Positions 6,131-30,311 of a stretch of DNA of 64,000 bases are shown here, piece after piece (the first letter of the stretch is position 1; each line of letters begins with the position of its first letter). The notes beneath the pieces are model-generated. The model saw only the letters and a list, made by a program, of their open reading frames with translations, had not been told where the DNA came from and ran no database searches. Position numbers and translations under genes: made by a program. The stretch lies in NCBI RefSeq assembly GCF_058153355.1, contig NZ_CM177019.1. One strand, 5' to 3'.

Positions 6131-6307
6131 TGTCGGATGCGGCGTAAACGCCTTATCCGACCTACGGTTTGCATCGTTGCAGGCCTGATAAGACGCGGCA
6201 AGCGTCGCATCAGGCAACGGCAGTCGGATGCGGCGCAGGCGCCTTATCTGACCTACGGTTTGTGTCGTGTAGGCCTGATAAGACGCGGCAAGCGTCGCAT
6301 CAGGCAT
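6131..6307. repeat. BIME/REP cluster (several inverted REP units)
   Basis: Repeated gcctgataagacgcg...cgtcgcatcaggc and cggatgcggcg...ccttatccg palindromic units. Confidence 0.85.
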
Positions 6308-7514: not shown

Positions 7515-7910
7515 TTATGAGTGGTCATTAAAGGCATCCTTAATCCACTCAACTTCATTCCCGGTGAAGGCTACCACATCGAACCGGCAATCCACAGTAT
7601 CAAAACTCCCATTATGACGCGCGAGCCACAAGCGGGCAGTCTGTAATAATTTGTGTTGTTTGCTGCGGGTCACACTGGCTGCCGCACCACCGTAAAGGGC
7701 TGAGCGGCGGTAACGCACCTCGACAAAAACGGTGGTCCTGCCTTCACGCATTATCAGATCGATCTCGCCGCCACGCTCGTTCACGTTAGCGGCGACAAAC
7801 CGCAGTCCTTTGCTCTCCAGCCAGCGACGCGCTTGTGCTTCCCACGCATCGCCGGTCTGTTTAGTGGTTAACTGGCGGGGACTACCTGACCTTGTTGGTA
7901 CTGTAGCCAT
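7515..7910 (-). CDS. yraN: UPF0102 protein YraN
   Basis: 131 aa ORF; 3' end overlaps lpoA start by ~43 nt. Confidence 0.85.
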
Positions 7911-9904
7911 GATAACTTCCTGTTAATTACGCAATCCGGGTTAGCCGTCAGACTTCCGGTATTACCGTTGATTTCGAAACCCTGAACCTGGCGCATTTGT
8001 GAGAAATGATTTGCCAACGACCAGGCATCAACGCCCATCGCATACATGCGAGCCAGCGAATAATCGTTATTCACCGCACTGAGCGCCTGCTGCATTAATG
8101 GCAGATTACCGCCTGCCAGCATCGGGATTTCGCTATATTGCAAACCTTCCATTTCCAGACGGAAATCCGGACCCGCGGTGCCTTGTGCGCTTCGGGAGCT
8201 GGCGTACAGCGTTGCACCGCTCTGGCTACCGTTACGCATGGCGATCATCGGTTTGATAAAAGCGATTTCGCCCGGCGTTGCCACAATGTACACCGCATCG
8301 ACACGGCCGCCATTATTGGTGAACTGGTCATCGGTTGGCGTGGTTTGCAGCGTTGGATTGTTGGTCGTTATGCCTGAGTCGGTTGTCGCTCTGGGAGTAA
8401 TCGGGCTACCGGTTAAAGCGATACCAGAACCACCGTTAACACCCGCGCGTAATTCGCTGGTGGAACCAAATTTTTGTTGCAAAACGGTGCCGCCACCCAG
8501 TTTCTGCCACTCTTGCGCAAACGCATTGGCTACGCGATCGCCCAATGAACTGCGTGGGATCAGCACCAGCGGCGCTTGTTTACCCTGGTCACGAATATGA
8601 CGCGCTGCATCGCGCGCTTCGTCTTCCGGTGAAAGCGCGAAGTAACAAATATTGACGCGGTTTTCGATATTTTCTGGCTGGTTCAGTGCCAGCACGTTCA
8701 GCGGGGTGTTGCTTTTCAGTAACTCTTCAACGTTATTTTTCAGCAACGGACCGACCACAATACTCGCGCCATCCTGCTGAACCTGGTTGAGGATCTGGCT
8801 AAGCGGTTGTGATGAGGTATCATAAATTTTCAGCTCTGCGGATGGATTCGCGGGGGCGCTTACCGCCGCAGTGCTTGCCGCCGGGGCGCTTACAGGCACT
8901 GGTTGAGCCGCGGTTTCTTCGCCTGTCAGATCGCTAACCGAGGCTTGTGCCGGGCTGGCAACGCCATCCACGGTTTGCGGCTGAGGTTGTTCTGCTACGT
9001 CTGCGGCAGGTGCGGCAGCTACCTGAGCCGCCACTGGCTGAGTGCCGATATTTTTTGCCGCTTCAAAGCCTTGCTGAATAGTGCGACCAAATACCGCTGC
9101 CTGGCCATTCAGTGGCAACAGCAGGGCGATTTTGTTGGTCGATGCGGGTTTAAATGCTTTTACGTTTACCAACTGCGTAGGCAGCATTTTCGCGCCCGGG
9201 TTGTTCGGATAACGTTTCTGCCAGTCGGCGATCCCAGCTTTCATCATGTCGGGATCGTTACGGTTATCAAACCAGATGCGCTGCAGATCAAGCCAGCCTT
9301 GCAGAATATTTTCGTCGGCGTTGATCACCAGCGTATTCGCCTGGTCCTGAGTCATGGAGGAGAGTGCCTGCCATGTAGCATCAATATTCTGTTGCTTTTC
9401 TTTCGCGCCGAGCAGGGGTTCCTGAGCAATTAAGGCGCGCAGTAAATCAATGGAAGGACGCCCCTGGCTGGCATCGATTTTTGCCTGCCAGTAACGCGCT
9501 TGCTGGTTTTGTTCTAAATCTGCAGGTGTGATTTTCGCCAGCAAGTTTTGCGCGCCAGCAAAATCTTTCTGCGCCAGCTTAATTTCTACTGCCAGAAGAG
9601 TTTTCTCGCGACGCTGGTAATCGTTCAGTTCCTGCGGCAGTTGGTTAAACAGCTCCACCGCCTGCCCGGTTTTACCTTCTTTCACCAGTGTACGAATGGC
9701 GAGTAATTGCCAGTTGATCCTGGTATCATCAGCGCTTTGCTGCATCTGCTGAAGATAAAAGGCAGAATCAGCCTGCGCCGTGCCCTGCATATAAGCAGTG
9801 GACTGATCGGGAGTATGGGTGCCACAACCGGCGAAAATCAGGGCTGCCAGAACAACAGGCAGACAACGCGCGGCTTTCAAACGAGAAAATGTTGAGGGTA
9901 CCAT
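7868..9904 (-). CDS. lpoA: Outer-membrane lipoprotein LpoA, activator of PBP1A
   Basis: ORF 7868-9934; start at [10 protein letters not shown], lipobox LIFAGC, TPR-like N-terminus. Confidence 0.9.
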
Positions 9905-9968
9905 AATGTATCCAGTGATATTTTTTTTACGCAATGCTCAATATTAAATCGGCAATACGGACGACACA

Positions 9969-10832
9969 ATGAAACAACACCAATCGGCGGATAATTCTCA
10001 GGGCCAGCTTTACATTGTACCGACGCCAATCGGCAATCTGGCGGATATCACCCAGCGTGCGTTGGAGGTATTACAGGCCGTTGATCTGATTGCCGCCGAG
10101 GATACGCGTCACACCGGTTTATTGCTGCAACATTTTGGGATTAATGCTCGGTTGTTTGCGCTGCACGACCATAACGAACAACAAAAAGCCGAAACGCTGC
10201 TGGCGAAGCTGCAGGAAGGGCAAAACATTGCGCTGGTTTCCGATGCCGGAACGCCGCTAATTAACGATCCTGGCTACCATCTGGTGCGTACCTGCCGTGA
10301 AGCGGGCATTCGCGTGGTGCCGCTACCTGGACCGTGTGCTGCTATCACTGCTTTAAGCGCCGCGGGTTTACCATCCGATCGTTTTTGTTATGAAGGCTTT
10401 TTACCTGCCAAATCAAAAGGCCGTCGTGATGCGCTAAAAGCCATTGAAGCGGAGCCGCGTACGTTGATTTTTTATGAATCCACCCACCGTCTGTTAGATA
10501 GCCTGGAAGATATCGTTGCTGTGCTGGGTGAGTCCCGTTACGTGGTGCTGGCGCGTGAGCTCACCAAAACCTGGGAAACCATTCACGGCGCGCCCGTTGG
10601 CGAGCTGCTGGCGTGGGTCAAAGAAGATGAAAACCGTCGCAAAGGCGAAATGGTGCTGATTGTCGAAGGTCATAAAGCACAGGAAGAAGACTTACCCGCC
10701 GATGCCCTGCGCACGCTGGCGTTGTTACAGGCTGAGCTTCCGCTGAAGAAAGCGGCGGCGCTGGCGGCAGAGATTCACGGCGTGAAAAAAAACGCGCTGT
10801 ATAAGTATGCGCTGGAGCAGCAGGGGGAGTGA
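9969..10832 (+). CDS. rsmI: 16S rRNA 2'-O-methyltransferase RsmI
   Basis: 287 aa tetrapyrrole-methylase-fold protein. Confidence 0.9.
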
Positions 10833-10881
10833 TTACTGGCGTCGCAGCAAGAATAGAGCTGCAACGCCTACACCGGACGAT

Positions 10882-11649
10882 TTAACGACGACACATCTCA
10901 TCAATCATGCATGTGAAATAGTTATGCAGCCATAAAAACGAAGCCGGGATAGCGGTAGAGACTTTAGCCGTGAGAAAACGTTCTGTCGCATCCTGCTTTC
11001 CTTCGCCAGTTATCAGTAGCAAAACTTCGCGGGTATTGAGAATATCCTTCAGGCCTAAGGTGATCCCACGAGTCACGGGGCGACCCGCGGTTTTTAGCAT
11101 CTCATGTTGCTGTGTTCTGGCATCAAGTTGACTGATATGGCAGGCCGGTTGCAGGCTTTCTCCCGGTTCGTTCAGCCCAAGATGACCGTTTTTCCCCAAT
11201 CCGAGAACGCATAAATCCAGACCGCCTTTGCGCGCAATCAGGTTCGTTACCCGTTCGCACTCTGTCTCATTTATCTCTTCGGAGCGAAAGCTGATGAGCT
11301 GGTCTTCACGTAGCCCCAGCGGCTGCACGATATGCTGTTGAAGGAAAGTTTCGCAGGTGCCAGGCATCGTTAATGGCAGATCCACCCATTCGTCGAGCTT
11401 CACGAAGGTGAGCTGGCTGACATCAACCTGCTGCTGGTGGATTTTTTCTACCAGATAATGATACGTCAGTAATGGCGTGGCTCCGGTCGCCAGGCAAATC
11501 ACGGCATCCGGTTTGCTACGGATCACGGCCAATAAATATTCGCTGGCACGTTCACTTAACGCCGTATAGTTTTCAACTTGTTGAAGGGTTTGCACAGGAT
11601 GAAATTCCTTTAGTAAAGAGGCACCACCAGACGCAGTGCCTCGTTCCAT
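10882..11649 (-). CDS. agaI: Galactosamine-6-phosphate deaminase/isomerase AgaI (NagB family)
   Basis: 255 aa NagB-like ORF; ATG overlaps agaD stop. Confidence 0.85.
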   Translation of the reverse strand: MERGTASGGASLLKEFHPVQTLQQVENYTALSERASEYLLAVIRSKPDAVICLATGATPLLTYHYLVEKIHQQQVDVSQLTFVKLDEWVDLPLTMPGTCETFLQQHIVQPLGLREDQLISFRSEEINETECERVTNLIARKGGLDLCVLGLGKNGHLGLNEPGESLQPACHISQLDARTQQHEMLKTAGRPVTRGITLGLKDILNTREVLLLITGEGKQDATERFLTAKVSTAIPASFLWLHNYFTCMIDEMCRR

Positions 11650-12441
11650 TTACAAAATGCCGAATGCGGAACAAACAATAGAGAGCACAAAAGTCACGCC
11701 GATTAACAGCACCGGATGCGCTTTTTTCACCCGCAGGAAGTAATACATCAACAGGGTGTAGGCCATCGGTAAAATGTTCGGGAAGACTTTATCGAAGAAA
11801 TCCTGCTGCAGCGCGACGCTGTGGGTACTGTCGATGGCAAACGATGTCACCACGTTAATATGCACATACGAAGCGATCAGCCCGCCGATTACCGTGATCC
11901 CGAGGATGGTTGCCGAACGAGCAATCATCTGCGAGTTCTCTCGCACTTTATCGATCGCCTTCACGCCGACTGAATAACCGACGTGGGTCCAGCCGACGCG
12001 CAGGAAAAAGATAAGCAGGTAAACGGCGAAAAATAGAATCGGCCCCAGCAAGTTTCCCTGGCTGGCAAATGATGAGCAAATTCCCGCCATAATCGGCAAT
12101 AAGGTAAACCAGAAAATCGCATCGCCAATCCCGGCGATTGGGCCAAACAGTGCCACTTTGAGGCCTTTAATGGTGTCGCGGTTTTCTCCTTTTTCTTCCA
12201 TCGAAATTAATAACCCCATCAGGAATCCGACCAGATTCGGGTGGGTATTAATAAATTCGAGGTTATCTTTCATCGCCGCGCTTAGGCCCGGTTTATCGTC
12301 CTTATAAATCTTTTTCAGGATCGGCAACATCGCCCAGGTAAAACCGCCCGCCTGCATCCTTTCGTAGTTAAAGCTTGCTTGTAGCAGTGACGAACGAAAG
12401 CCCAGACGGGTGATATCTTTTTTACTGATTTCAGATCCCAT
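11650..12441 (-). CDS. agaD: PTS galactosamine EIID AgaD
   Basis: ORF 11650-12588; start at MGSEISKKDITRLGF, mannose-family IID. Confidence 0.88.
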   Translation of the reverse strand: MGSEISKKDITRLGFRSSLLQASFNYERMQAGGFTWAMLPILKKIYKDDKPGLSAAMKDNLEFINTHPNLVGFLMGLLISMEEKGENRDTIKGLKVALFGPIAGIGDAIFWFTLLPIMAGICSSFASQGNLLGPILFFAVYLLIFFLRVGWTHVGYSVGVKAIDKVRENSQMIARSATILGITVIGGLIASYVHINVVTSFAIDSTHSVALQQDFFDKVFPNILPMAYTLLMYYFLRVKKAHPVLLIGVTFVLSIVCSAFGIL

Positions 12442-13234
12442 TGCTGTAGTCCTCTTCTTCATTTTTACTGGCAACGGGCTGCGGTTGCGCTTGCTGCCGG
12501 GATTTCGCATTGAAAAACTCATACACCGCAAAGCCTGCGCCCAGTACGGCAACCGGCAACAGGTTGCTGACCTGGATGTAGCAAACAAACAGGAAACCGG
12601 CGATCAGGTAAGGGATATATTGCGCTTTGAACATTACGCGCAGCAGCAAGCCAAAACCAACGGCAGGCAGAATACCGCCAGCCACTTCAAAGCCGTGGGT
12701 CAGCCAGGCGGGCATCGCTTTCACCAGCGCCTGCATCGCCCCTTGCGCCAGGTAAGTACAGAGGAAAGCAATCACCGCATACGCTGAAGCGACGATGAGC
12801 ATCGTTGTCCAGTTAAGTCGGGAAAACGCTGCCGTATCCGCATCTTTCGCGCATTTATCGGCTTTGGTCATAAATAATGAGAAAGCGGAATAGAAGAACA
12901 GAATGACGTACTGCATTAACAAACTAAACGGCAGGCCAAGACCAATTGCCGTTTTGGCATCAACGCCCGTAGACCATGCAATGACGGTGGTCATCAGACC
13001 CGCCATAATCGGGTTGGGCGGCTGAACACCACCTGCAGGGGTTAATCCGGCGAAAGCCAACTCTGTTAGGCCACCGGTAATTAAGCCAGTCTGAATATCA
13101 CCGAGAATAGCACCTGTAAGGGTACAAACGATTATCGGGCGGAATAAAAATAAGGCTTCCAGCCAAAAATCAATCCCCAGAACGAAAACTAACGCCGCCA
13201 GGGATAATCCCTGAATTAGGGTTATTTCATGCAT
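12431..13234 (-). CDS. agaC: PTS galactosamine EIIC AgaC
   Basis: 267 aa mannose-family IIC; 11 nt overlap with agaD. Confidence 0.9.
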   Translation of the reverse strand: MHEITLIQGLSLAALVFVLGIDFWLEALFLFRPIIVCTLTGAILGDIQTGLITGGLTELAFAGLTPAGGVQPPNPIMAGLMTTVIAWSTGVDAKTAIGLGLPFSLLMQYVILFFYSAFSLFMTKADKCAKDADTAAFSRLNWTTMLIVASAYAVIAFLCTYLAQGAMQALVKAMPAWLTHGFEVAGGILPAVGFGLLLRVMFKAQYIPYLIAGFLFVCYIQVSNLLPVAVLGAGFAVYEFFNAKSRQQAQPQPVASKNEEEDYSNGI

Positions 13235-13273
13235 TTTTATTACCTCAAACCAGTATTAAGGCGATTTTTGAAT

Positions 13274-13750
13274 TTAGTCAGGGATTTGTTCTTTTTGATC
13301 GCCGGGGACGTCCTGAATAAAAATATTCACACCGCGTTGTTTAATAAAGCGTAAGTCCGTGAGATCCTGGTCATCGACATAAACTTTACTGCTGATTTGC
13401 TTTTTCCCTTCCGAGAAATGCATATTGCCGACGTTGACATCTTTCAGGTCAATACCACCTTCTACCAATTTACGTACCGTTTGTGGTGTGCGGCAAATCA
13501 GGAAGATCTTCTGATGCGGTGCAGCTTTGCCGATGACGTTAATGGTTTTTTCGATAGTAAAGAAACGAATGCCAAAGCCGTAGGTTTCCGCGGTAATACC
13601 CATTAATTTCTGTTGAATATCATCGTTAGCGACAACATCATCCACGACTACCAGCAGATTTGCACCGATGGTAGATGTCTAGGTCACACCAACCTGACCG
13701 TGAACCAGACGGTTATCAATACGGGTTAAGAGAATATTTGGACTGCTCAT
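13274..13750 (-). pseudogene. agaB: PTS galactosamine EIIB AgaB interrupted by in-frame TAG at codon 24
   Basis: From ATG at 13750: MSSPNILLTRIDNRLVHGQVGVT-TAG-TSTIGANLLVVVDDVVANDD...; stop codon at 13681-13679; downstream 123-codon frame is intact. Confidence 0.7.
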
Positions 13751-13916
13751 TGTGTAATCCTCACCATAAAGTTGAATAATATAATTTTTTTAAATATATT
13801 ATTGTTGCGATATTTTACTGATGTATTTATTAAGTTTTAGTTATCTCCTTTACCATTAAGGCACTCCCCGATATTAATCGGGAAGTACATTGGGATAAAT
13901 CATAAAAAACTAATGA

Positions 13917-14789
<873 letters not shown>

Positions 14790-15944
14790 TTATGCCTGCC
14801 ACGGATGAATGATTACGCCTTGCACCACGCGGTTAACGGTGCCGCTGGCTGATGGGGTATCCGGCGTATTGCCCATGTGCAGCGACTGCATCAGTGCAAA
14901 CGTCTGGGCGTACATCAGGAAGCAAAATGCCTGCTCAACGTCGATAAAGTGACGTGACGGCGGCAGGATGATATGTGGACCGGCGGTAATAACGTCGTTG
15001 CCTTCCGCGGCGATGGCGATTACGCTCATTGCCTGGTTGTCACGGCGGAGTTCTGCCAGCAGATCAAGATCATACTGACGCGTATAGGGGTGGCTGGAGA
15101 CAAACACCACCACCAGCGTTTCGTCATCGACCAGTGATTTAGGCCCATGACGGAATCCGGTCGGGGAATCATAAAAGGCCGCCAGTTTACCCGCCGTTAG
15201 TTCAAGCACTTTCAGCGCCGACTCGCGTGCTGCACCCTGTAATCCACCACTGCCGAGATAAACGATCCGTTTCCATGGTGCGTAACCAAACACACCTTCG
15301 CTGAAATCGCCCAGTGAGGTCAGGATTGCCTGGCAACGATCCGCTACGTCGCGGAAGGTCTGGCTATTGATTGTCTCAGGTGCGAAAACCGCGAGGCAGC
15401 TGGCCATCATAGTGGTAATGCTACTTGTCATCGCAAAGCCGCGATCGTGCGTTTCTGCGGGCATCAGCAGGGCAAACGCGTTGTCGCTGTTGATCGCGTT
15501 TTGGTAAAGAGCGCCCGCTTCGTTGCAGGTGATCGGCAGGTGATAGCATTCCGGTACAAACTGATTCGCCAGTTCCACGGCGGCGACGCTTTCCGGGCTG
15601 TTGCCAGATCGACCGAAGGAGATCAACAGCAGTGGATGCGCTGGATTCAGGTAGTCCATTGGATTGGTGACCAGATCGGTGGTCGGTACGGCGCTGACGT
15701 TTTTGCCGGTATGGCTGGCAAGCCACGGCGCGATGATGTCACCGATAAATGCCGAGGTTCCGGCTCCGGTCAGGATGATCCGCAGATTCTCTTTGCGCAG
15801 TAACGGTTCAAGGAAGTTATTGAGCGCTGTACGTAACGCGTCGATGTTGGTGAGTGAACGGATCCATGCGCGAGGCTGATGGCGGATCTCTTCTTCAGTC
15901 CATGTGCCGGTGGTGGCGGCCGCTGGGGTGTAATTTTCTGGCAT
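14790..15944 (-). CDS. agaS: SIS-domain sugar isomerase/deaminase AgaS
   Basis: 384 aa tandem-SIS protein. Confidence 0.9.
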   Translation of the reverse strand: MPENYTPAAATTGTWTEEEIRHQPRAWIRSLTNIDALRTALNNFLEPLLRKENLRIILTGAGTSAFIGDIIAPWLASHTGKNVSAVPTTDLVTNPMDYLNPAHPLLLISFGRSGNSPESVAAVELANQFVPECYHLPITCNEAGALYQNAINSDNAFALLMPAETHDRGFAMTSSITTMMASCLAVFAPETINSQTFRDVADRCQAILTSLGDFSEGVFGYAPWKRIVYLGSGGLQGAARESALKVLELTAGKLAAFYDSPTGFRHGPKSLVDDETLVVVFVSSHPYTRQYDLDLLAELRRDNQAMSVIAIAAEGNDVITAGPHIILPPSRHFIDVEQAFCFLMYAQTFALMQSLHMGNTPDTPSASGTVNRVVQGVIIHPWQA

Positions 15945-15989
15945 AACTCAATCCTTAGTCTGATGAACTTGACTTCCGGCATTGCAGGC

Positions 15990-16110
15990 TTTGCTTGCCT
16001 TTCGTTTCATTTCACTTGGTGATTCGTTTCGTTGATTAAAATCTATAGAAAAGAAATCGAAAGTTAAATGGGGAAAAAAGAAATAAAACGAAATTTGTGA
16101 TCGTTGAAAG
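15990..16110 (-). promoter_or_regulatory. agaS promoter region with AgaR operator-like TTTCGTTTCATTTC motifs
   Basis: tttcgtttcatttcac (16003-16018), ttcgtttcgttg, and complement of gaaataaaacgaaa match the recalled AgaR operator consensus. Confidence 0.5.
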
Positions 16111-16294
16111 AAAAGACAAGGGAAGATTAAAGGATTGCGTGATGACGTCGCTATGTGTACCGATTGCTGGAAGCGGCGTACCGTAGAGCGGATAAGACGC
16201 GCCAGCGTCGCATTCGACACCACTGCACAGATTAAAACGAAAGAAAAAGAAAGGCCTTACGGGGGAAGTGAAGGCCCAATAAAGGAGCAAACCA

Positions 16295-17428
16295 TCAAAA
16301 CGAAGCTAATTGACCCTGAATCCAGATTTGTTGCACATGCAGTCCGCTATCCAGCGCAACGACGCTGGCGCGTTTGCCCGGTTTAAGTGATCCCAAAACA
16401 CCATCAACACCCAGCATTCGCGCCGGATGCAGCGACGCCATATGGATGGCTTCCGCTGGCGTTACGCCCGTCAGCTCGACCATATTGCGAACAGCCGCAT
16501 CAACAGACAGCGTACTGCCCGCCAGTCCACCGGACGCGGTACGGACAACGCCGTCGTGCATCTGCACCTCTTCACCACATAACGTATATTGACCATCCGG
16601 CATCCCGGCTGCCTGCATCGCGTCGGTGATCAGCACGATTCTCTCTTTCGCACAGCAACAACACAGCGACATCGCCGCCGGATGTACATGATGCCCATCG
16701 GCTATCAATTCCAGCCAGGCGCGCTTGTCCGTTAAACCCGCGCCAACCATTCCCGGTTCGCGGTGATGTAATCCTGTCATCCCGTTATAGCAATGCACCA
16801 GGCCGTCGGCACCAACATCAAATGCGGCGCGGGTTTGTTGCCAGGTTGCTGCGCTATGTCCCAGCATTACCCGCACGTTCTGCTGTTTAAGATGACGAAT
16901 GGCTTGTAACGCGCCCGTTTTTTCCGGTGCCAGCGCCACCACGCGCAAGGTATGCCGTGAAACAGCAATCAATTGATCCAGCTCGGCAATTTCCAGCTCG
17001 CGAAACAGCTCCGGCGGATGTGCGCCTTTATTCTGCGGCGTGAAGTACGGTCCTTCGAGATAACTCCCCAGCACTTGCGCACCAGGTCCACCGCGCTGGC
17101 AGCGTAGAGCAATACGTTCCAGCGCCGCATGAATGGTATTAAGCGGCGCGGTTACGGTAGTCGGCAACCAACTGCCGACACCTTCCCGTGCCTTGTGCAT
17201 TGCCAGCTTGTCGAGCACATCCGGCGCGTCATCCATAACATCAACGCCCGCACCACCGTGTACATGGGTATCGATATAAGCGGGGCAGAGCAGTTCCGCA
17301 TCGCGTTCAGCCACGCCCACTGGAATCGGTTCGATTGCTGCAATTACACCGTCAGCAATATGCAACTGATGATCATCAAGCCAGCCCTCCTCAGTCAGCA
17401 GCCTTCTGGCGCGCAGAACGTGTGTCAT
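16295..17428 (-). CDS. agaA: N-acetylgalactosamine-6-phosphate deacetylase AgaA (full length)
   Basis: ORF 16295-17449; start at MTHVLRARRLL; NagA-like amidohydrolase. Confidence 0.85.
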   Translation of the reverse strand: MTHVLRARRLLTEEGWLDDHQLHIADGVIAAIEPIPVGVAERDAELLCPAYIDTHVHGGAGVDVMDDAPDVLDKLAMHKAREGVGSWLPTTVTAPLNTIHAALERIALRCQRGGPGAQVLGSYLEGPYFTPQNKGAHPPELFRELEIAELDQLIAVSRHTLRVVALAPEKTGALQAIRHLKQQNVRVMLGHSAATWQQTRAAFDVGADGLVHCYNGMTGLHHREPGMVGAGLTDKRAWLELIADGHHVHPAAMSLCCCCAKERIVLITDAMQAAGMPDGQYTLCGEEVQMHDGVVRTASGGLAGSTLSVDAAVRNMVELTGVTPAEAIHMASLHPARMLGVDGVLGSLKPGKRASVVALDSGLHVQQIWIQGQLASF

Positions 17429-17859
17429 ATTCCTTCCTCGACCGGACATTCTTCATGGCAGCGGCCTAACTCGTCCACCAGACTGGTCAGCCCACGGTGT
17501 CCACACTCCAGCGCCTGTACACGGAATTCTTCACCGCTTAACCCTTCGCGCTCCAGCACCATTTCCAGTAACAGTTGCAAATTGGTGCCGGTGATCACTT
17601 CATAGCCCGGTTTTTGCATCGCCAGCGTTGAAGCCACGCGAAACGGTGTGCCGCCCAGCAAATCTGTCAGAAAAACAATGCCGTCTTCACAATCCAGTTT
17701 GGCAATGGCTTCTTCAAGCTGCGATGTAAGCAGCGCAGTGCTTGAGGTTTCCGGAAAATCAATGGCGATAAACTGCGACTGCTCGCCGAGGATTTGCTTC
17801 ATTGCTTTTTCCATGCCGCTGGCAAATCCGCCATGCCCTGTCAAAATAATACTTAACAT
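17425..17859 (-). CDS. agaF: PTS N-acetylgalactosamine EIIA AgaF
   Basis: 144 aa mannose-family IIA. Confidence 0.85.
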   Translation of the reverse strand: MLSIILTGHGGFASGMEKAMKQILGEQSQFIAIDFPETSSTALLTSQLEEAIAKLDCEDGIVFLTDLLGGTPFRVASTLAMQKPGYEVITGTNLQLLLEMVLEREGLSGEEFRVQALECGHRGLTSLVDELGRCHEECPVEEGI

Positions 17860-17876
17860 CTAATACCTCATTGTAT

Positions 17877-18761
17877 TTAAAGGAAATGACAGAATTTACC
17901 GACGATGCCAAGAACCACGGTAACCGCAATCAGGCGCAGCGGGCTCCAGCCGCGGCGTACCAGCCAGAACATGGTCAGGGTGTAGACCAGCGGTAAGAAG
18001 GCAGGCATCAGTTTGTCGATAACATCAGCCTGTAACTTAACCACTGCGTCGCCAGCGGTGATTTCCAGCGTGGTGCTTAAACGAACATAGGTTGCCACCA
18101 GCGCGCCGATTACCGTCATCCCAACGATTGACGCAGCATGGCCGACTTTTTTGGTATTCGCTTTAATGAGTGGAATCGCCGCCACGCCCATGCGGTAAGC
18201 ATAATGCGCCAGACCAAAACGCAGCCCCAGGTGTACCACGTTGAACAGCACAATAAAGACGACTGCGCCAAGAATAGAGCCTTGCAATGCCAGACTGGCA
18301 CCAATCCCGCCACAAATCGGCAGTAACGTTAGCCAGAACATGGCATCGCCAATCCCGCCGAGCGGCGCACCGACGGCAATTTTGGTGCTCTGAATACTGT
18401 TAACGTCCTGCTTAGAACGCTCCATCGCGAGGATAATGCCAATAACAAACGTCACCAGAAATGGATGGGTATTGAAGAAACCCATATGTCCCTTCATGGC
18501 GGGCGCCAGGTCGCGTTTATTAGTGTGGATCTTTTTCAGAGCAGGCAGCAGACCGTACAACCAGCCGGAAGCCTGCATACGCTCGTAGTTAAAAGAAGCT
18601 TGTAACAGCATGGAACGCCAGGCGACGCGGTTGATATCTTTTTTTGTTAGCTCCGCGCCAATGTTCTGATCTTCGTATACGTTTTCATTGACGCCTGTCA
18701 GTAGTGTCTCTTCATTTTCGCTGACGTTCGGCAGGGTGGTTTGATTAGATGCCATCTTCAA
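17877..18761 (-). CDS. agaE: PTS N-acetylgalactosamine EIID AgaE
   Basis: 294 aa mannose-family IID. Confidence 0.85.
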   Translation of the reverse strand: MKMASNQTTLPNVSENEETLLTGVNENVYEDQNIGAELTKKDINRVAWRSMLLQASFNYERMQASGWLYGLLPALKKIHTNKRDLAPAMKGHMGFFNTHPFLVTFVIGIILAMERSKQDVNSIQSTKIAVGAPLGGIGDAMFWLTLLPICGGIGASLALQGSILGAVVFIVLFNVVHLGLRFGLAHYAYRMGVAAIPLIKANTKKVGHAASIVGMTVIGALVATYVRLSTTLEITAGDAVVKLQADVIDKLMPAFLPLVYTLTMFWLVRRGWSPLRLIAVTVVLGIVGKFCHFL

Positions 18762-19524
18762 ATTCCTCTTTCTGTGCCGCAGGTTGAGTCGGTTCAGGAG
18801 ATTTACGCAGCAGGTCGATCAGCGCCATCGCCAGCGCGGCGGCAGCAATAGCCAGCACCGGTAACTTGAGCCAGGCTGCGGCAACGAAGCCCAGGATGAA
18901 GTAGGGGATATAGACGTTTTTCATCATGATTTTCAGCAGCACGGCAAAACCGATTGCTGGCATGATGCCGCCCGCGACGCCAAGGCCGTCGATTAACCGT
19001 TGCGGCAGGACATCAATGATGGTTTTTGCATGCTCCGCGCCGAAGTAGATAGGCAGGAAAGCGCAGAGAAAATAGAACGTGCCGAGTGCCAGCAATGCCA
19101 GATAGTTCACGCGTTCAATGCCGCGAGTATCGGCGTTCTCCGCCATCCGGTCGCAGCGGGACATCACGCCAGACATCACCGAGAACAGGAAGGTAATCCC
19201 CATCTGTACTGCGACAGCGAAAGGTACGGCGACACCGACCGCGACATCCGGTTTCACGCCAGTAGTAATGGCAAACGCCGTGCCGACGATAGTTCCGATA
19301 ATCACGTTAGGCGGCTGTGCGCCCGCCAGCGGTGCCAGCCCCATCCACACCAGTTCCAGCGTACCGCCGGTTAAAATACCGGTATGCAGATCGCCAAGCA
19401 CCAACCCAACTAACGGGCCGAGGACCACCGGGCGGTGCATATGGGTCAAGCCGTTAAACATATCCAGGCCAGCGATAAAGGCGATAATGCCCAACGCAAA
19501 TGCCTGCAACAGACTGATTTCCAT
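18745..19524 (-). CDS. agaW: PTS N-acetylgalactosamine EIIC AgaW (full length)
   Basis: 259 aa mannose-family IIC, not truncated. Confidence 0.85.
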   Translation of the reverse strand: MEISLLQAFALGIIAFIAGLDMFNGLTHMHRPVVLGPLVGLVLGDLHTGILTGGTLELVWMGLAPLAGAQPPNVIIGTIVGTAFAITTGVKPDVAVGVAVPFAVAVQMGITFLFSVMSGVMSRCDRMAENADTRGIERVNYLALLALGTFYFLCAFLPIYFGAEHAKTIIDVLPQRLIDGLGVAGGIMPAIGFAVLLKIMMKNVYIPYFILGFVAAAWLKLPVLAIAAAALAMALIDLLRKSPEPTQPAAQKEEFEDGI

Positions 19525-19534
19525 AATGAATCCC

Positions 19535-20008
19535 TCAAAGTAATTTAAAGAGGTCCACAGCAGGTTCTGTCGGAACGCCCTGAACGAAGCATTCCACCCC
19601 AGCGGCTTTCAGGTCGTTAAATGCCGCGATATCGCTCGCATCCACAGAAACCGTTTTGGCAATTTGCTGCTTGCCATTGGCATAGTGCATGTTGCCAACG
19701 TTAATGCGACTCACCGGGACACCACCTTTAACCAGCGTCAGGAAATCGGCAGGTGTTTTACAAACCAGCAGGATTTTCTGCCGATCGGCGGCGCGGTGGA
19801 TGTTGTCGATCACTTTTTGCAGCGTCCAGAAACGTACGGCGATCCCTTCTGCCAGTACCATTTCCATCAGGTTTTGTTGTACCGGATCTTCGGCAACCTC
19901 ATCATTGGCTACCAGCACCAGATTTGCCCCCGCAAATCCGACCCACTGAACGCCGACCTGACCGTGAATCAAACGCTCATCAATCCGGCTTAAAACAATA
20001 TTTGGCAT
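19535..20008 (-). CDS. agaV: PTS N-acetylgalactosamine EIIB AgaV
   Basis: ORF 19535-20044; start at MPNIVLSRIDERLIHGQVGV. Confidence 0.85.
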   Translation of the reverse strand: MPNIVLSRIDERLIHGQVGVQWVGFAGANLVLVANDEVAEDPVQQNLMEMVLAEGIAVRFWTLQKVIDNIHRAADRQKILLVCKTPADFLTLVKGGVPVSRINVGNMHYANGKQQIAKTVSVDASDIAAFNDLKAAGVECFVQGVPTEPAVDLFKLL

Positions 20009-20030
20009 AGCGTGTTCCTCTTTGTTTTGC

Positions 20031-21311
20031 TTATTGGCCTTCACAGGCTGTGTGGTACTGCGCCAGGATGTCCTGAATATGGTTGATAATGAGTTCCCGT
20101 GGTGTTGGCTGCAGCTCGCCGGAGCGAACTTTCACGTACTGCAGCGGCAAATACTGGCTGATGAGCGGTAGCGGAATTGGTGCATCCGCCAGATTACGAA
20201 CCAGATGAGCGAAAGCGTCATCAATCTGGCTGTCCGGCCAGTAATAGCGCACGCGATCCGAGTAGCTATAACCACGCGCCAGACGACGCGCGTTGCCGTC
20301 ACCGTGGTAGTGGCTTTGCCAGTATTCCGGGCGGTCGAGCATCACGTTTTCCAGCACCTGACGCAGACCGGAACAGGCTTTCGCTGGCACCAGTTCTTCT
20401 TCAATCGCCGCCAGAGAGAACAGAGCTTCACGCAGGGCGAAGGTCAGCGCCGGACCAACTTTCAGAATGGCAAAGTGGTCAATCACCAGCTGGCGCAGCG
20501 ATTGCGGCGTTTGGTAATCGGTAGAGTGCGCTTCGAAAATCAGCGTTTCGTAGTTTTCGACCATCTGGCTTAAGGCGGTCGCTTTAGCTGGCTGATAATC
20601 AATAACGTTGGTGTGATCGAATTCGACGCCGGGTTGTACCACCAGAGCAATGATGCGTGGCCAGATGGCATTCAGACCTTGCTTTTCAAAGGCGTGACGA
20701 TGGGCTTCCAGCGTGGCGCGGGCGGCATCCGGCGTGGTGACCGCCAGCTCGCTTAAGGTTTCATGCGCGCCGCCAGGTACCGGCACTTCGGTACCAATGA
20801 CATAGACCAGATCGGCTTCGCCAAAGTGTTCACGACAGGTTTCTTCCGCGACTTTAGCCAGTCGGGCGGCGCGTTCAGCCACGATGTCATCGGTTAAGGG
20901 AACCGGATCGTCCTGACAGGACATGCTGCAATCAAGGTGAATTTTTTTGAATCCTGCCGCCACGTAGCTTTTAATCAAATCATCGGCATTGGCCATCGCC
21001 TGAGCTGCAGGCAGGTTTTGCCAGCGGTTTGGCCCCAGATGATCACCACCCAAAATCAACGCATCCTGTGGGAAATTCAATGAGTCGGCGAGCTGACAAA
21101 CAAAGCCGCGAAAATCGGCGGGTGTCATTCCGGTATAACCGCCGAACTGGTCCACCTGATTGGATGTCGCTTCAATCAGTAACGGTGTTTGGTTTGCACT
21201 GGCGTAGCGGATTGCAGCTTCCAGCACCAGCGGGTGTGCGGAACAAACGGCATAAATCCCATTTGTTTTGCCCTTTTTGTGCTGCCTCACCATTTCTGTC
21301 AGATGTTTCAC
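20031..21311 (-). CDS. kbaZ: Tagatose-bisphosphate aldolase subunit KbaZ
   Basis: ORF 20031-21377; probable GTG start giving [15 protein letters not shown]..., ~426 aa. Confidence 0.85.
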
Positions 21312-21559
21312 TTTCCTCTCCAGTTCAGATTGCTGCGATATTAATCTTTCGTTTTGTTTCAGTTGATACTGCGTCATGGTGAGATAAAAATAAAACGAAA
21401 GATAATAGTTTTCTGATCTGATTCACAAAAGAAACATAATGAAAGTCTCTAAAACGAGAGTAGCTTGCGGCTGGGGGCAATGTGGGCTTGCATTTGCTTA
21501 ATAGAAAGGCGTTAATAGGCAAAACGAAATGAAACGAAAGTTTTACGAAAGGACTTACT
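21312..21559. promoter_or_regulatory. Divergent kbaZ / agaR promoter region with AgaR operator-like repeats
   Basis: Complements of aaaataaaacgaaag and gcaaaacgaaatgaaacgaaag give TTTCGTTTYATTTY-type motifs. Confidence 0.6.
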
Positions 21560-22369
21560 ATGAGTAATACCGACGCTTCAGGCGAGAAGCGAGTGACAGG
21601 CACCAGCGAGCGACGAGAACAAATCATTCAGCGCCTGCGACAGCAAGGGAGTGTGCAGGTTAACGATCTGTCGGCATTGTATGGCGTATCTACTGTGACG
21701 ATCCGCAACGATCTGGCGTTTCTGGAAAAGCAGGGGATCGCTGTGCGGGCCTATGGCGGCGCGTTGATCTGCGATAGCACGACGCCGTCAGTCGAGCCAT
21801 CAGTGGAAGATAAAAGCGCGCTGAACACTGCGATGAAATGCAGCGTTGCGAAAGCTGCCGTTGAGTTGATTCAGCCAGGTCATCGGGTGATCCTCGATTC
21901 CGGGACCACCACGTTTGAGATTGCTCGTCTGATGCGCAAGCACACTGACGTAATTGCGATGACCAATGGTATGAACGTAGCCAATGCACTGCTGGAAGCA
22001 GAAGGCGTTGAACTTCTTATGACCGGCGGGCATCTGCGGCGTCAGTCGCAATCTTTTTACGGCGATCAGGCTGAACAATCGCTGCAAAATTACCACTTCG
22101 ATATGCTGTTTCTTGGTGTAGATGCGATCGATCTGGAGCGCGGTGTCAGCACGCATAATGAAGATGAAGCCCGTTTAAACCGTCGGATGTGCGAAGTTGC
22201 GGAACGGATCATCGTGGTCACCGATTCCAGTAAGTTCAACCGTTCCAGTTTACATAAGATCATTGATACTCAACGTATCGACATGATCATTGTTGATGAA
22301 GGCATTCCTGCGGATAGTCTGGAAGGACTGCGAAAGGCTGGGGTTGAAGTGATTCTGGTCGGGGAGTGA
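21560..22369 (+). CDS. agaR: DeoR-family repressor AgaR
   Basis: 269 aa, N-terminal HTH plus DeoR C-terminal sugar-binding domain. Confidence 0.9.
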
Positions 22370-22901
22370 GAAATGGTGCCCGTAGCTCAACACGGATGTG
22401 TTCGGCGGGCATTGTTCACTGTCCTTTTACAGCCTGTTTTCTGCTCAAATTAGAAGCTTCAGCAAAGGTAATGCAAATGCATTATTAACAGCAGAAAGCG
22501 CCAGAACCAACGAAAAAAGAGAGCATGTTTCCCATTTTGCGAGGCGCTTTCCAAATCACCCGCTCAGTCCCCTCGCGTTGCAGTGCTAAAAGCACTATTT
22601 TGCAAATTTGTGACCTTCTTCACTCTCCCAAAAGGCGGTGATCTCACGGTGGGGATCCACTTTCTGCTTTCGCTTTTCTGCCGTTAGCACTCGCTATTTC
22701 GGCATCTCTTCTTTTCACTTTTTCAGTTTGTCATTTTCATTTGCGGTCAACCGAAAGTTCTGGAGTCGATTTTTCCAGGTTTCAACGCCGTTGTCGCGTT
22801 CACAAATTCACTTCTTTTCTTCTGATGTAATGCATTCAAAAGAAAATGAAAGCTGCAAAATGCAAGAATGCAACTAAATACTTTTTCAGGGAGCGATAAA
22901 C

Positions 22902-23672
22902 ATGCTAGATAGCCTAAGACGCCGCGAACAAATCATTGATTTGTTATGTGCCCAGGGAAGCGTACGCGTTGAGCCGCTCAGCATCCATTTTGGTGTCTCA
23001 TCGGTCACGATCCGCAATGACTTACGGTATCTGGAGCAAAAAGGTTGCGTCATGCGTTCCTATGGCGGTGCCGTGTTGAATCAACACTTTGCGCTCGACA
23101 GACCCTTGCAGGATAAAGATCGCCTTAATCGTGATGTTAAAGTGCGAATTGCCGAAAAAGCGGCCAGTTTTGTCAAAGATGGCGATACATTAATTATCGA
23201 TTCTGGTTCAACGACCACGCTAATTCCCGCTTCGCTCAAAGGGCGTCGGGATTTAGTCGTCATGACGAATGCCTTGAATATCGCCTGGGAAATGGCCAGT
23301 TTTGAACGGGTGGATGTTATGATCCTTGGTGGAAATGTTCGCCAGAGCGTCTACTCCCTGTATGGGCCTTCGGCAGAACAACAACTCCGGCAGTATCGCT
23401 TTGATAAGCTGTTTCTGGGCGTGGACGGCTTTTGCCTTGAAGCAGGGATTACCACGCCACATCCGGGTGAGGCACATCTGAACCAGGTGATGTGCCAGGT
23501 TGCGCAGGAAATTACTGTTGTCGCGGACTCCAGTAAATTTGGCCGCAAAAGCTTCTGTATGATCGGTGAAGTGAGCGAGATAGATCGACTGATTACCGAT
23601 AGCGGTATTCCGGAGAATTACAAAGCAGCATTAACGCAAATGGGTGTGGAAGTTGTGATTGCTGATGAGTGA
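22902..23672 (+). CDS. DeoR-family transcriptional regulator, AgaR paralogue (accessory)
   Basis: 256 aa; N-terminus RREQIIDLLCAQGSVRVEPLSIHFGVSSVTIRNDLRYLEQKG parallels AgaR; good RBS (GGGAG). Confidence 0.85.
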   Translation: MLDSLRRREQIIDLLCAQGSVRVEPLSIHFGVSSVTIRNDLRYLEQKGCVMRSYGGAVLNQHFALDRPLQDKDRLNRDVKVRIAEKAASFVKDGDTLIIDSGSTTTLIPASLKGRRDLVVMTNALNIAWEMASFERVDVMILGGNVRQSVYSLYGPSAEQQLRQYRFDKLFLGVDGFCLEAGITTPHPGEAHLNQVMCQVAQEITVVADSSKFGRKSFCMIGEVSEIDRLITDSGIPENYKAALTQMGVEVVIADE

Positions 23673-23676
23673 GAAA

Positions 23677-23708
23677 ATGTGGCTGGAGATAAACGTCGCC
23701 AGCCACAT
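23677..23708. terminator. Hairpin between convergent DeoR regulator and ROK kinase genes
   Basis: tgtggctgg...ccagccaca inverted repeat. Confidence 0.4.
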
Positions 23709-23716
23709 TACGTTAT

Positions 23717-24628
23717 TCAGGTTGCATGTTCGATTTGCAGCAACGCCGCGCCTCGTACACCGCTCGTTGCTCCGTGAATGGCAGAAAATACGCGCGCAGG
23801 TTCCAGTCCAGGAAGAAGATAACGCGTCATAGCTTTCGGCAATAACGTGTAAATTTCTTTGAAGTTAGACACACCGCCGCCAAGAACAAATGCATCTACG
23901 TCGAGAATATGCTGCAACTGTGCCAGCGTACAACCAACCATATCTATCCAGGCGCTAATGGTGGTGATGGCACTGGGAACGCCACGTTGATGATTTTCTA
24001 ACAATGTCTCCATAGTGATTTGCTCATCGCTGAAATGCTTATGTAACCAGAGCAAGCCAGGACCGGACTGGTAGCGTTCCAGGCACCCTTGCAAACCGCA
24101 GCCGCATTGTAATTCAGGCAGGTTATAGCGCCGCGTAAATGTCGCCGGGAGCGGTAAATGGCCAAACTCGCAGGCCATACGGTTACGGCCACGGTACAAC
24201 TGGCCATCAATAACTAATCCCCCGCCCATACCCGTGCCGATAATCGCGCCAAAGATCCGACTATATTGACGAGCTTGATCGGTATGCGCTTCTGATAGGG
24301 CGAAGCAGCAGCAGTCATTATCCATTATTACCGGGCGGTTAAGGCGATTTGCCAGATCGGTTAACACCTGGCGTCCGGTCAGGCAGGGAACGTTAGAAGA
24401 CAACAGTTTACCGGTGTGCCGATCCATAACGCCGGGCATCCCGATACCTATTTTGCCTTGCGTACCCGTGGCCCAGTCAGCGGTATCAATCAGAGACACA
24501 AATGTGGATAGAAAAAGCGCGTAATCCTGAACAGGCGTAGCTACCCGCTTGCGCCAGCAAATTTGTAAATCCTGATCAAAGGCGACTATCTCTGTTTTGG
24601 TTCCACCAATATCAACACCGTAAAACAT
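23717..24628 (-). CDS. ROK-family sugar kinase, NagK-like
   Basis: 303 aa; DIGGTK N-terminus and CGCG..C zinc motif as in N-acetylglucosamine kinase. Confidence 0.85.
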   Translation of the reverse strand: MFYGVDIGGTKTEIVAFDQDLQICWRKRVATPVQDYALFLSTFVSLIDTADWATGTQGKIGIGMPGVMDRHTGKLLSSNVPCLTGRQVLTDLANRLNRPVIMDNDCCCFALSEAHTDQARQYSRIFGAIIGTGMGGGLVIDGQLYRGRNRMACEFGHLPLPATFTRRYNLPELQCGCGLQGCLERYQSGPGLLWLHKHFSDEQITMETLLENHQRGVPSAITTISAWIDMVGCTLAQLQHILDVDAFVLGGGVSNFKEIYTLLPKAMTRYLLPGLEPARVFSAIHGATSGVRGAALLQIEHAT

Positions 24629-24646
24629 CGCTCATCTCCTTTGGTT

Positions 24647-25903
24647 TCACAGCACAACCAGGGTATTTTCCTTGCGAGCGCGTTCGGCGGCAAAGACCAT
24701 TAAATGACTTTCGAGCGATTCATCTGGTCCTGAAAGGATCATCGCTCGATCGTCAGCCATCACGGCATGGATAAAGCTGTCCATCAGATAGTAATCACCA
24801 CCACCGTGCCCTCCCATTTGGGTGTGAGTGCCTGCGTTTTTCTCTTCAACGGTGTAAATAGTTTCCTGGTCGGTGAGAAAATCAAAACACCGAATGGTGT
24901 TGCCATCGCCTTCCAGATAACCTTTCGAACCGAAAACTCGGGTTTTGCGATCCTCCATTTTCGTAAAGGCTGTCATTGTAAAAGTGACGCTCTGCTGATG
25001 CGCAAACTGCATGTTTACCACTTGATGATCAACAACATCGTTATCGCAGCAATAAACACAGCGACCATAGGGGCCGTCACGCAGGGCCTGACGAATATTC
25101 TCTTCAGTAGGATTTGGTGTTAACACGTGGCGAAAGTGAAACGTACATTTATGGGCTTCGCCAGCATAAATTTTGCATGCGGACCACGGGCAGGTCGCTT
25201 CTGCCTGGCAATCGAGACAGCGTTCGGCTGCGCCTTCAGGTTGGTTTTGTTTTACAAAATGGTTGAGCCCGCCAAATGAGCTAACGGTTTTACAGTTGTC
25301 TCCCATGATGTAGCGGATCCAGTCCAGATCGTGGCAGGACTTTTGTAACAACATAAATGATGATTCAGCCTCGTTGCGCCAGTTACCACGCACAAAAGAG
25401 TGTGCCTGGTGCCAGTAACCGACGGGTTCGAGATGCTGCATACTGATAATGTCGCCAATGATGCCGCTATCGAGTAAGAATTTGAGTTTTTGTGTATATC
25501 GGGTGTAACGAAGAACGTGTGCGACGGCTAATAAGACATTATTGCGTTTGACGGCATCAATGATAATGCGGCAATCGTGCTCTGTTGGCGCGAGCGGTTT
25601 TTCCAACAGAATGTGGTAACCGAGATCGGCAAAAGCGACGGCCGGATCTCTATGCATATTGTCTTGCGTACAAATAAGTACAGCATCAGCCATTTTTGGC
25701 CGAGCAGCAGCCTCTTTCCAGTTGCTAAAAATATTATCTGTCGGGATCGTATGCCGGGACACAACTTGCTCGCGGTAAGCCTCTCTAGGTTCAGCAACAC
25801 CTACCACTTGCATTCTGTCCGGATGCTCAAGGGCATAGCGGGAATATATTTCTCCACGTGCGCCTGCACCTATTACTAAAACAGTGACTTTATTTTTACT
25901 CAT
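24647..25903 (-). CDS. Gfo/Idh/MocA-family NAD(P)-dependent oxidoreductase with Cys-rich insert
   Basis: 418 aa; Rossmann N-terminus (VLVIGAGARG), EKP motif, Cys cluster CLDCQAEATCPWSACK...CVYCC. Confidence 0.8.
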   Translation of the reverse strand: MSKNKVTVLVIGAGARGEIYSRYALEHPDRMQVVGVAEPREAYREQVVSRHTIPTDNIFSNWKEAAARPKMADAVLICTQDNMHRDPAVAFADLGYHILLEKPLAPTEHDCRIIIDAVKRNNVLLAVAHVLRYTRYTQKLKFLLDSGIIGDIISMQHLEPVGYWHQAHSFVRGNWRNEAESSFMLLQKSCHDLDWIRYIMGDNCKTVSSFGGLNHFVKQNQPEGAAERCLDCQAEATCPWSACKIYAGEAHKCTFHFRHVLTPNPTEENIRQALRDGPYGRCVYCCDNDVVDHQVVNMQFAHQQSVTFTMTAFTKMEDRKTRVFGSKGYLEGDGNTIRCFDFLTDQETIYTVEEKNAGTHTQMGGHGGGDYYLMDSFIHAVMADDRAMILSGPDESLESHLMVFAAERARKENTLVVL

Positions 25904-25945
25904 ATAAAGAAATACCTTTCTGATAAATTCATCTTAATTGCTACG

Positions 25946-26704
25946 TTATAAATTACGAAAACTAACAAGATGAAATCCGTGTTTTTCAATCGCATATTTG
26001 AGTGACGGTGTAGTCAGAACCGTAAGTTCTTCCAGCCGTTGATAGCAGTAACTGCTCGACATTAAGTGGTTATCTACGAATCCAGGGTGACACATAATTT
26101 CCAGCGATTTTTCATCACGTTTTATGGCGCTATCGAGGAGTGATAAAAAAAAGTCTTCTGAAATATTATTATCGTAGAAATTACTGCTGAATCCCTCACT
26201 ACTTTTGGCATCCAGCGAATCGATTTTTTTCTCTCGCAGAACAGAATGGTCTATACGTAATGGTAAATTTTTCTCACGCGCGAACCGCGCGACAACGGGA
26301 TAAACCTGCGGGATCATATGAACGCTGTGATGGCTGTCTAAATGGGTGGGCTCCCGTTTAAATACATCAATAAAACGTTGATATTGAGAACTCAGTTCCT
26401 GTTCAATTTCACCCGTGTTTAATTGCCCTTGCTCCGCGACATCCCAGATCCATTTACCTAATTGGCCTGCGCGTACCAGCGAAGGCATATCCGTTAAGGC
26501 GGCGCCATAGCTCAAAACAAAATGTAACCCGACGCCGAGCTGTGGGGTTTCGGCACTTAAAGAGGCAGCATGATCAATTGCCGGAGCATTCATCATCGCA
26601 GTTGTTGAGCGAACGACACCATTTCGTACTGCCTCGATAATTCCATAATTAATACCTTTACTTAGTCCAAAGTCATCCGCATTCACAATTAATAAGCGTT
26701 GCAT
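25946..26704 (-). CDS. YdjC-family carbohydrate deacetylase (ChbG-like)
   Basis: 252 aa; NADDFG and HLDSHHxVH motifs. Confidence 0.85.
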   Translation of the reverse strand: MQRLLIVNADDFGLSKGINYGIIEAVRNGVVRSTTAMMNAPAIDHAASLSAETPQLGVGLHFVLSYGAALTDMPSLVRAGQLGKWIWDVAEQGQLNTGEIEQELSSQYQRFIDVFKREPTHLDSHHSVHMIPQVYPVVARFAREKNLPLRIDHSVLREKKIDSLDAKSSEGFSSNFYDNNISEDFFLSLLDSAIKRDEKSLEIMCHPGFVDNHLMSSSYCYQRLEELTVLTTPSLKYAIEKHGFHLVSFRNL

Positions 26705-26716
26705 AAGGCGTCCTTG

Positions 26717-28069: not shown

Positions 28070-28145
28070 GTTACTTCCATACTCAATATTAAATTGACTT
28101 GTGATGCCATGGTTTATCTAAACGCTGGCATGATGAAGCGTGCTA

Positions 28146-29506: not shown

Positions 29507-29575
29507 AAAAATATCCTTATATACCGATTAATGTATCACTGCGACTTTGGTTTTATTAATATCCTGTTGCTATGG

Positions 29576-29893
29576 TTACTTTTGCTCTTTTTTTATTATG
29601 GCGATAGCTGATTTTAGAACACCTAAGCCATCAATTTTTCCATATAACATTGAATCAATAACTTCCACTGGCTTTCCTGGTAATAAGCTTTGGATCTCTG
29701 ATTGCATGTAAGCAATTTGAGGTCCCAATAATATAACATCGGCTTCCGGCCCTTTCTCTGCGGCAACAGATTCGGAGAATGCTTCGATAATTACTGGCAC
29801 ATCATATTTTATCGCCTGCACTTTCATTTTTGACACCAGCAGTGATGTTGACATTCCCGCTGAACAAAATAAGTATATTTTTTTCTTTTCCAT
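29576..29893 (-). CDS. PTS lactose/cellobiose-family EIIB (ChbB-like)
   Basis: ORF 29576-30109; start at [20 protein letters not shown] (phospho-Cys motif), ~105 aa. Confidence 0.85.
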
Positions 29894-30278
29894 AGGGACT
29901 CCAGATATATTACGTAATAATATATTTGTCATGCCATGAATGGCATATGAGGCGACTTTAATTAAAAAGGCACGGATGTTTATATTGATTTCCTGAATGT
30001 CGTCTTTTGGTATTAATCTCAAAAATTTCAGGAGCCATTGAATAATCTGGTTTATAGGATTGAATGTCAAGAGAGTGAAATTGTGGGCGTGTTGTAATAA
30101 AAATAGCACGGCTTTCGGTAGGTTTCTTTTTTAGCGGAATGAAAAGTACAGGCAAAATGGTAATTGAATAAATTAACGTTTTTTCAATAGATTACGTTTT
30201 TTCCTGCCTACAGGAATGAAAAAAACAACAATCTAAAAATACTTTAGATATGTGAGAGTTATCACTTACTTTTCGTGG

Positions 30279-30311
30279 GGAAAACGGGGAAACACAGTCT
30301 CCCCGTTTTCC
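30279..30311 (-). terminator. Stem-loop immediately downstream of garD
   Basis: ggaaaacgggga / tccccgttttcc perfect 12 bp inverted repeat. Confidence 0.4.

Follow-up and report, generated by a model that had tools for sequence, protein, structure and literature searches.

A common, old rsmI-agaI junction lacking yraHIJK in an Escherichia coli-like genome

The DNA stretch analysed here (64,000 nucleotides of contig NZ_CM177019.1, hereafter the window) comes from an E. coli-like genome that carries a common and old yra-negative junction between rsmI and agaI, two genes that are separated in K-12 by the fimbrial operon yraHIJK. We assign a probability of roughly 0.88 to the reading that the site where rsmI and agaI converge has long been polymorphic for the presence or absence of yra, and that the window carries its yra-negative allele. 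The absence of yra is an ordinary strain-to-strain difference, and the allele is well populated rather than specific to this strain. The features of the junction and of its immediate surroundings are as follows.

7868..9904, minus strand: lpoA, a core gene divergent from rsmI (tblastn with K-12 LpoA, 98% identity over 678 aa; orthologous annotation in strain EC42405)
9969..10832, plus strand: rsmI, 16S rRNA C1402 2'-O-methyltransferase, 287 aa (NCBIfam NF011570 equivalog, 629 bits)
10827..10924, 98 bp: haplotype-specific segment defined by BLAST against K-12, which takes in the final codon of rsmI, the spacer and ~14 diverged codons at the end of agaI
10833..10881, 49 bp: convergent intergenic spacer, the "empty" filling where K-12 has yraHIJK
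10838..10868: stem-loop in the spacer identified by RNA folding, with an 11-bp stem (arms 10838-10848 and 10858-10868) and a 9-nt loop
10882..11649, minus strand: agaI, galactosamine-6-phosphate isomerase family, 255 aa (NCBIfam NF007291, 471 bits)
11650..15944, minus strand: the rest of the agaS-kbaY-agaBCD-agaI operon, which ends at the junction (NCBIfam, tblastn and EC42405 annotation)

Both rsmI and agaI gave NCBIfam equivalog matches above the cut-off, and the two orthologs converge directly. The first-pass annotation, made from the sequence alone, had placed rsmI (plus strand) and agaI (minus strand) about 49 bp apart; the distance between the two stops, as measured, is exactly 49 bp (10833..10881). 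Beyond agaI, the minus strand carries agaD, agaC, agaB, kbaY and agaS, as revealed by the ORF listing, family scans and tblastn. The same annotation had reported that yraHIJK is missing between rsmI and agaI, and the ORF listing and tblastn both agree. Searches with the K-12 YraH, YraI, YraJ and YraK proteins (tblastn, E ≤ 1e-3) detected no homologs in the whole 64-kb window, so that the rsmI-agaI site holds neither a chaperone nor an usher nor a fimbrial subunit gene. A repeat search of the spacer found no repeats beyond a single hairpin, an Rfam scan of the spacer returned no match other than a chance snoRNA hit at E 0.77, and a scan for consensus promoters and terminators identified none in the junction.

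The annotation of K-12 MG1655 gives the order agaI-yraH-yraI-yraJ-yraK-rsmI and puts the stops of agaI and rsmI 5,449 bp apart, which bears out the K-12 order on which the initial observation relied. The K-12 Yra locus, a gamma1 chaperone-usher fimbrial locus, shares its chromosomal site and flanking genes with the window. The two sequences are 94-98% identical up to 6 bp before the rsmI stop and again from 43 bp inside agaI. BLAST alignments with K-12 break off at 10826 and start again at 10925; the segment between these breakpoints spans 98 bp in the window and 5,483 bp in K-12, the 5.4-kb operon and an AT-rich regulatory region being absent from the former. The GC content of the K-12 yra DNA is 0.43-0.48 and falls to 0.27-0.29 upstream of yraH, compared with 0.50-0.57 in the flanks.

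The two alleles also differ in the ends of the flanking coding regions. RsmI is one residue longer in the window (...EQQGE, as opposed to ...EQQG in K-12), and AgaI is four residues longer and has a different C-terminal tail (...WLHNYFTCMIDEMCRR in the window, ...WLHSNFICLINT in K-12). Although the body of agaI is 98% identical to that of K-12, approximately 40-50% of positions differ in the agaI tail. The AgaI tails of the window and K-12 are nevertheless recognisably homologous to each other and to those of other genera, and the tail found in the window is typical of yra-negative genomes. When the 98-bp segment was compared with the 5.5-kb K-12 segment and both of its edges, no significant match was obtained, only 14-bp chance matches and a non-significant one located after the hairpin.

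The frequency of the junction was determined in 5,426 complete E. coli genomes. A 171-bp junction query, with carriers defined as genomes in which at least 80% of it was covered in one piece, proved colinear in 1,821 of them, including Nissle 1917, and a 1.8-kb query across the junction was held within one place in 1,835. The K-12-type yra segment was found in 3,523 genomes and was covered by at least 80% in 3,264. Over the 171-bp junction, yra-negative E. coli genomes are 90.6-98.2% identical to the window, while K-12-type yra shows 97.9-100% identity among its carriers. In some of these carriers yra is itself interrupted: an IS1203 copy lies inside yra in O157:H7, and IS1 does so in some strains.

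An alignment showed that the window junction is colinear with six other yra-negative junctions. The spacer measures 49 bp also in 2017-02-2CC, EC42405, ST131, ATCC 25922, the divergent lineage labelled E. coli E69, and E. albertii. B2 strains (ST131, Nissle 1917 and ATCC 25922) and E. albertii share with the window the 49-bp spacer, the hairpin and the ...EMCRR AgaI tail in a colinear arrangement, and these junctions differ from that of the window by point differences only. The window groups with 2013C-4282, 2017-02-2CC and EC42405, not with B2, and its closest relatives share the empty junction. Sequence identity is 98-98.7% to the best matches (EC42405, 2017-02-2CC and a few others) and ~96-98% to typical E. 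coli, which indicates that the window represents a sparsely sampled lineage.

Sliding identity profiles around the junction are mosaic on the lpoA-rsmI side and show a sharp boundary on the agaI side, with no clean gradient for dating. Within 8800-10826 (the 5' part of lpoA and rsmI), the identity per 100 bp ranges from 0.88 to 1.00 even with respect to the closest genomes, and the best match among genomes for 9900-11700 reaches only 97.9%. On the agaI side, identity to K-12 stays at 98-100% as far as 10925.

The junction was then followed beyond E. coli. An RsmI scan using one genome per species yielded 80 loci, onto which the K-12 proteins were mapped; none of the RsmI loci retrieved was identified as coming from E. 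fergusonii, E. marmotae or E. ruysiae. E. albertii and E69 each give one unbroken alignment to the window across the junction (90.7% and 93.2% identity, respectively), and both have the ...EMCRR AgaI tail and the same hairpin. Because the 49-bp junction is common to these two lineages, the empty allele must be older than E. coli. In E. whittamii, K-12-type yra sits between the same breakpoints, which coincide with those observed against K-12, and the encoded proteins are 83-90% identical. The distribution of the alleles across Escherichia species indicates that both are older than the species carrying them.

Outside Escherichia, direct convergence of rsmI and agaI was observed in Citrobacter youngae, C. 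werkmanii and Citrobacter FP75, in Phytobacter, Trabulsiella and an Enterobacter, and in a MAG, with spacers of 51-141 bp. In Klebsiella spallanzanii and K. oxytoca, Citrobacter sp. MGH106 and Superficieibacter, rsmI has a yra-like operon next to it on its downstream side, in the same orientation, and gatR-gatD-gatC, not aga genes, come after the operon.

The core of the spacer is the hairpin. Folding gave a centroid of -17.4 kcal/mol on the plus strand (z -2.2) and a minimum of -23.4 kcal/mol on the minus strand (z -3.7); the structure folds especially well on the agaI strand. In alignments it proved homologous to the hairpin of the rsmI terminator in K-12 and E. whittamii, as well as to the hairpin in the rsmI-agaI spacers of C. 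youngae and C. werkmanii. In the alignment comprising both haplotypes and Citrobacter, 88.6% of cells pair and four pairs exhibit compensatory change, whereas only 20-49% of cells pair in controls slid by 1-3 columns. In E69, the same hairpin carries an A-U pair in place of a G-C pair. As the hairpin is homologous in both haplotypes, the real heterology starts after it and ends in the last agaI codons.

Of the hallmarks of an intrinsic terminator, the window hairpin has the G+C-rich stem-loop, as evidenced by the 11-bp stem and its covariation, but lacks a U-tract directly 3' of the stem on either strand; the stem is followed by TACACCGG on the plus strand and by AGTAATCA on the minus strand, and a terminator scan returned 0 sites in 10600..11100. 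In contrast, the homologous K-12 hairpin is followed by CTTCTTTT, which provides a T-tract, and is called as a terminator. Since the window hairpin has no T-tract, a role in termination can only be presumed for it; the stem-loop is probably a 3'-end hairpin common to the rsmI and aga transcripts.

The site can also be filled in other ways. In E. coli ECNB21-M121 (locus L086, 8150-9000), an 851-bp cassette of GC 0.41 encoding a RelE/ParE-family toxin and an HTH antitoxin takes the place of the 49-bp spacer, running from a single base beyond the rsmI stop codon as far as the stop of agaI. The gap of ~14 genomes between the counts obtained with the 1.8-kb and 171-bp queries fits a few small insertions of this kind. 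The same strain carries ISKpn26 in agaD. In Escherichia sp. MOD1-EC7003 (locus L016, 1699-6711), rsmI and agaI flank a second yra-like chaperone-usher operon that is deeply divergent. The proteins it encodes share 53-65% identity with K-12 Yra; the usher is 58% identical to that of K-12 and 65-67% identical to the ushers of Klebsiella and Superficieibacter. In a divergent genome labelled E. coli, SCPM-O-B-8794 (locus L005, 10865-17547), which has 94% identity to the window, the homology runs precisely to the rsmI stop and no further. There, rsmI is followed by a 523-aa ORF on the minus strand and then by ORFs of 444, 256, 299 and 408 aa, which by size and order look like garD and garPLRK, and mapping of the K-12 proteins found neither aga nor yra genes in the locus. 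No integrase, tRNA, IS end or duplication is marked at the boundaries of these alternative fillings.

These observations tentatively suggest that the gap between the rsmI and agaI stops is a cassette-like recombination hotspot kept polymorphic across Escherichia, a reading on which opinion could reasonably divide. At least four fillings would be involved (the hairpin only, K-12-type yra, a second yra-like lineage and the 851-bp toxin-antitoxin cassette), all bounded at both stop codons, with the empty and the K-12-type alleles each predating their carrier species.

The direction of the change is less easily read. We lean slightly towards the empty site having come first in Escherichia. This leaning derives from the AT-rich character of yra DNA relative to the flanks, from the AgaI endings and from the comparison of diversities reported above, in which the empty junction varies more within E. 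coli than does K-12-type yra among the genomes carrying it. As to the AgaI endings, in the empty allele the tail has been conserved between E. albertii and E. coli, while the three yra-bearing Escherichia lineages each have a different ending after CL[IF][DN], beside DNA of GC 0.25-0.27. Outgroups are mixed, featuring empty junctions, yra followed by gat, or other fillings, and do not decide polarity.

An ancient deletion is possible, though we consider it the less probable course. According to this explanation, the Escherichia ancestor had the order rsmI-yra-agaI, and a single old loss, accompanied by remodelling of the agaI end, produced an allele that has since segregated across species. 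The yra-like operons found at the same position and in the same orientation by rsmI in Klebsiella, Citrobacter and Superficieibacter, four other genera or species in all, speak for it; at this depth, a filled ancestor with several losses is equally parsimonious. The rsmI hairpin kept in both alleles, and a weak 9/10 match between ACCGGACGAT, located after the window hairpin, and ACCGCACGAT, at the 3' end of K-12 yraK, point the same way. However, shuffling showed that the latter match is not significant (p 0.09-0.2), and it is weaker in other empty junctions than in the window. Moreover, the AgaI tail is conserved in the empty allele, whereas the tails of yra-bearing lineages differ and read into low-GC DNA like clipped gene ends, and rsmI-agaI adjacency is widespread outside Escherichia.

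It is very improbable that yra was an island borne by an IS, a transposon or an integrase, the excision of which left an empty attachment site. The site does behave as a hotspot with several alternative fillings, as a mobile element might predict, but neither an integrase nor a transposase or tRNA is annotated in or beside the K-12 yra segment. The annotation lists only yraH, yraI, yraJ and yraK in the variable segment, in which no att site was found either. A repeat search and the comparison with K-12 revealed no terminal inverted repeats, direct repeats or target-site duplication at the boundaries, and the IS1 and IS1203 copies are secondary insertions inside yra. In addition, the boundaries fall at stop codons in three alleles, which fits allelic replacement by homologous recombination rather than integration of the site-specific kind. 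The remark in the first-pass annotation that the junction holds no IS remnant is supported by the same repeat search and by the comparison with the K-12 edges; the comparison it had proposed, of the junction with genomes carrying and lacking yra, disclosed neither a target-site duplication nor a deletion scar.

Still less credible is the idea that this strain, or the lineage immediately around it, recently lost a K-12-type yraHIJK by clean deletion, an idea for which only the bare absence of the operon relative to K-12 can be adduced. The junction is homologous and of equal length in E. albertii, E69 and B2 strains and is common to 1,821 genomes, the 98-bp segment cannot be built from the edges of the K-12 segment, and the divergence of the agaI tail contrasts with the near identity of the gene body. 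A recent event is refuted by the colinear E. albertii and E69 junctions and by the occurrence of the allele in about one third of complete E. coli genomes. The site had originally been interpreted as either ancestrally empty or cleanly deleted; of these options, a recent deletion of the K-12 type falls, while an ancestral empty site and a very old deletion both stay, given the yra-like operons next to rsmI in other genera. An assembly artefact that collapsed the region is hardly conceivable, as an identical architecture is present in 1,821 complete genomes and in other species.

Under the favoured reading of a long-standing polymorphism, the aga operon and rsmI end back to back in the yra-negative allele, separated only by a 49-bp spacer, the stem-loop core of which is inherited from the rsmI 3' end and presumably fixes or stabilises the 3' termini of the two transcripts. 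In the alternative allele, the 5.4-kb AT-rich gamma1 yraHIJK operon and a regulatory region of ~400 bp occupy the interval between the hairpin and the agaI stop. The empty allele is inherited vertically and probably spreads by homologous recombination in the conserved genes on either side as well. Recombination in conserved flanks would yield boundaries at gene ends devoid of any mobile-element signature, selection presumably protecting the coding sequences when whole alleles are swapped in this manner.

The variable presence of yra is already known. The yraHIJK cluster, of the gamma1 type, is present in strains W, K-12, B and Crooks (PMC3032704), and yraH, yraJ and yraK are among the genes expressed only in A/B1 urinary isolates (PMC4128348). 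Yra falls outside the core-associated fimbrial types in Wurpel et al. 2013 (PMC3559732), the text of which, figures aside, does not discuss it. Among the clade-specific chaperone-usher loci described there, sfm is absent from B2 and E. fergusonii; yra resembles such loci in its fixed position, its lineage-dependent presence and the occurrence of orthologs at the same locus in other Enterobacteriaceae. In contrast, the trans-species sharing of both yra alleles and the additional fillings emerge from the present comparisons and not from the text of PMC3559732.

For the strain, the consequence is the absence of Yra fimbriae, which are cryptic in K-12; lacking one cryptic fimbrial operon, as about one third of sequenced E. 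coli do, matters little. The K-12 gene order should not be taken as the default. What the comparison adds is an old empty allele common to E. albertii, a covarying rsmI 3' hairpin in both alleles and several alternative cassettes, which make the site a small but clean case, where core genes meet, of presence/absence polymorphism that crosses species boundaries.

Other differences were noted in the neighbourhood. The galactosamine PTS IIB gene agaB (13274..13750) contains an in-frame amber codon, TAG, at 13679-13681 on the minus strand, where EC42405 has TGG. The amber falls at Trp24, and the rest of agaB is 98% identical to K-12 AgaB; the gene is either a pseudogene or the site of a sequencing error, and the codon, if genuine, would predict that the strain has lost its galactosamine-specific PTS. 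The N-acetylgalactosamine half of the region (agaA/nagA, agaF, agaE, agaW, agaV and kbaZ; ~16,300-21,700) appears complete, as in EC42405, and K-12 agaW and agaA are pseudogene remnants. Between agaR and garD (~22,490-30,300) lies a cluster of ~7.5 kb, in which the EC42405 annotation places a second AgaR-like repressor, a ROK protein, a Gfo/Idh/MocA oxidoreductase, chbG, a 6-phospho-beta-glucosidase, chbC and a PTS IIB component. The interval 11700-30000 is covered by at least 80% in only 3 of the 5,426 complete E. coli genomes, most of which stop matching at ~22,488. Finally, a REP/BIME-like 91-bp unit is tandemly repeated (1.9 copies, 90% matches) at 6132-6306, in what the annotation of relatives identifies as the yraQ-dolP intergenic region, the length of which is 114 bp in 2017-02-2CC and 204 bp in EC42405.
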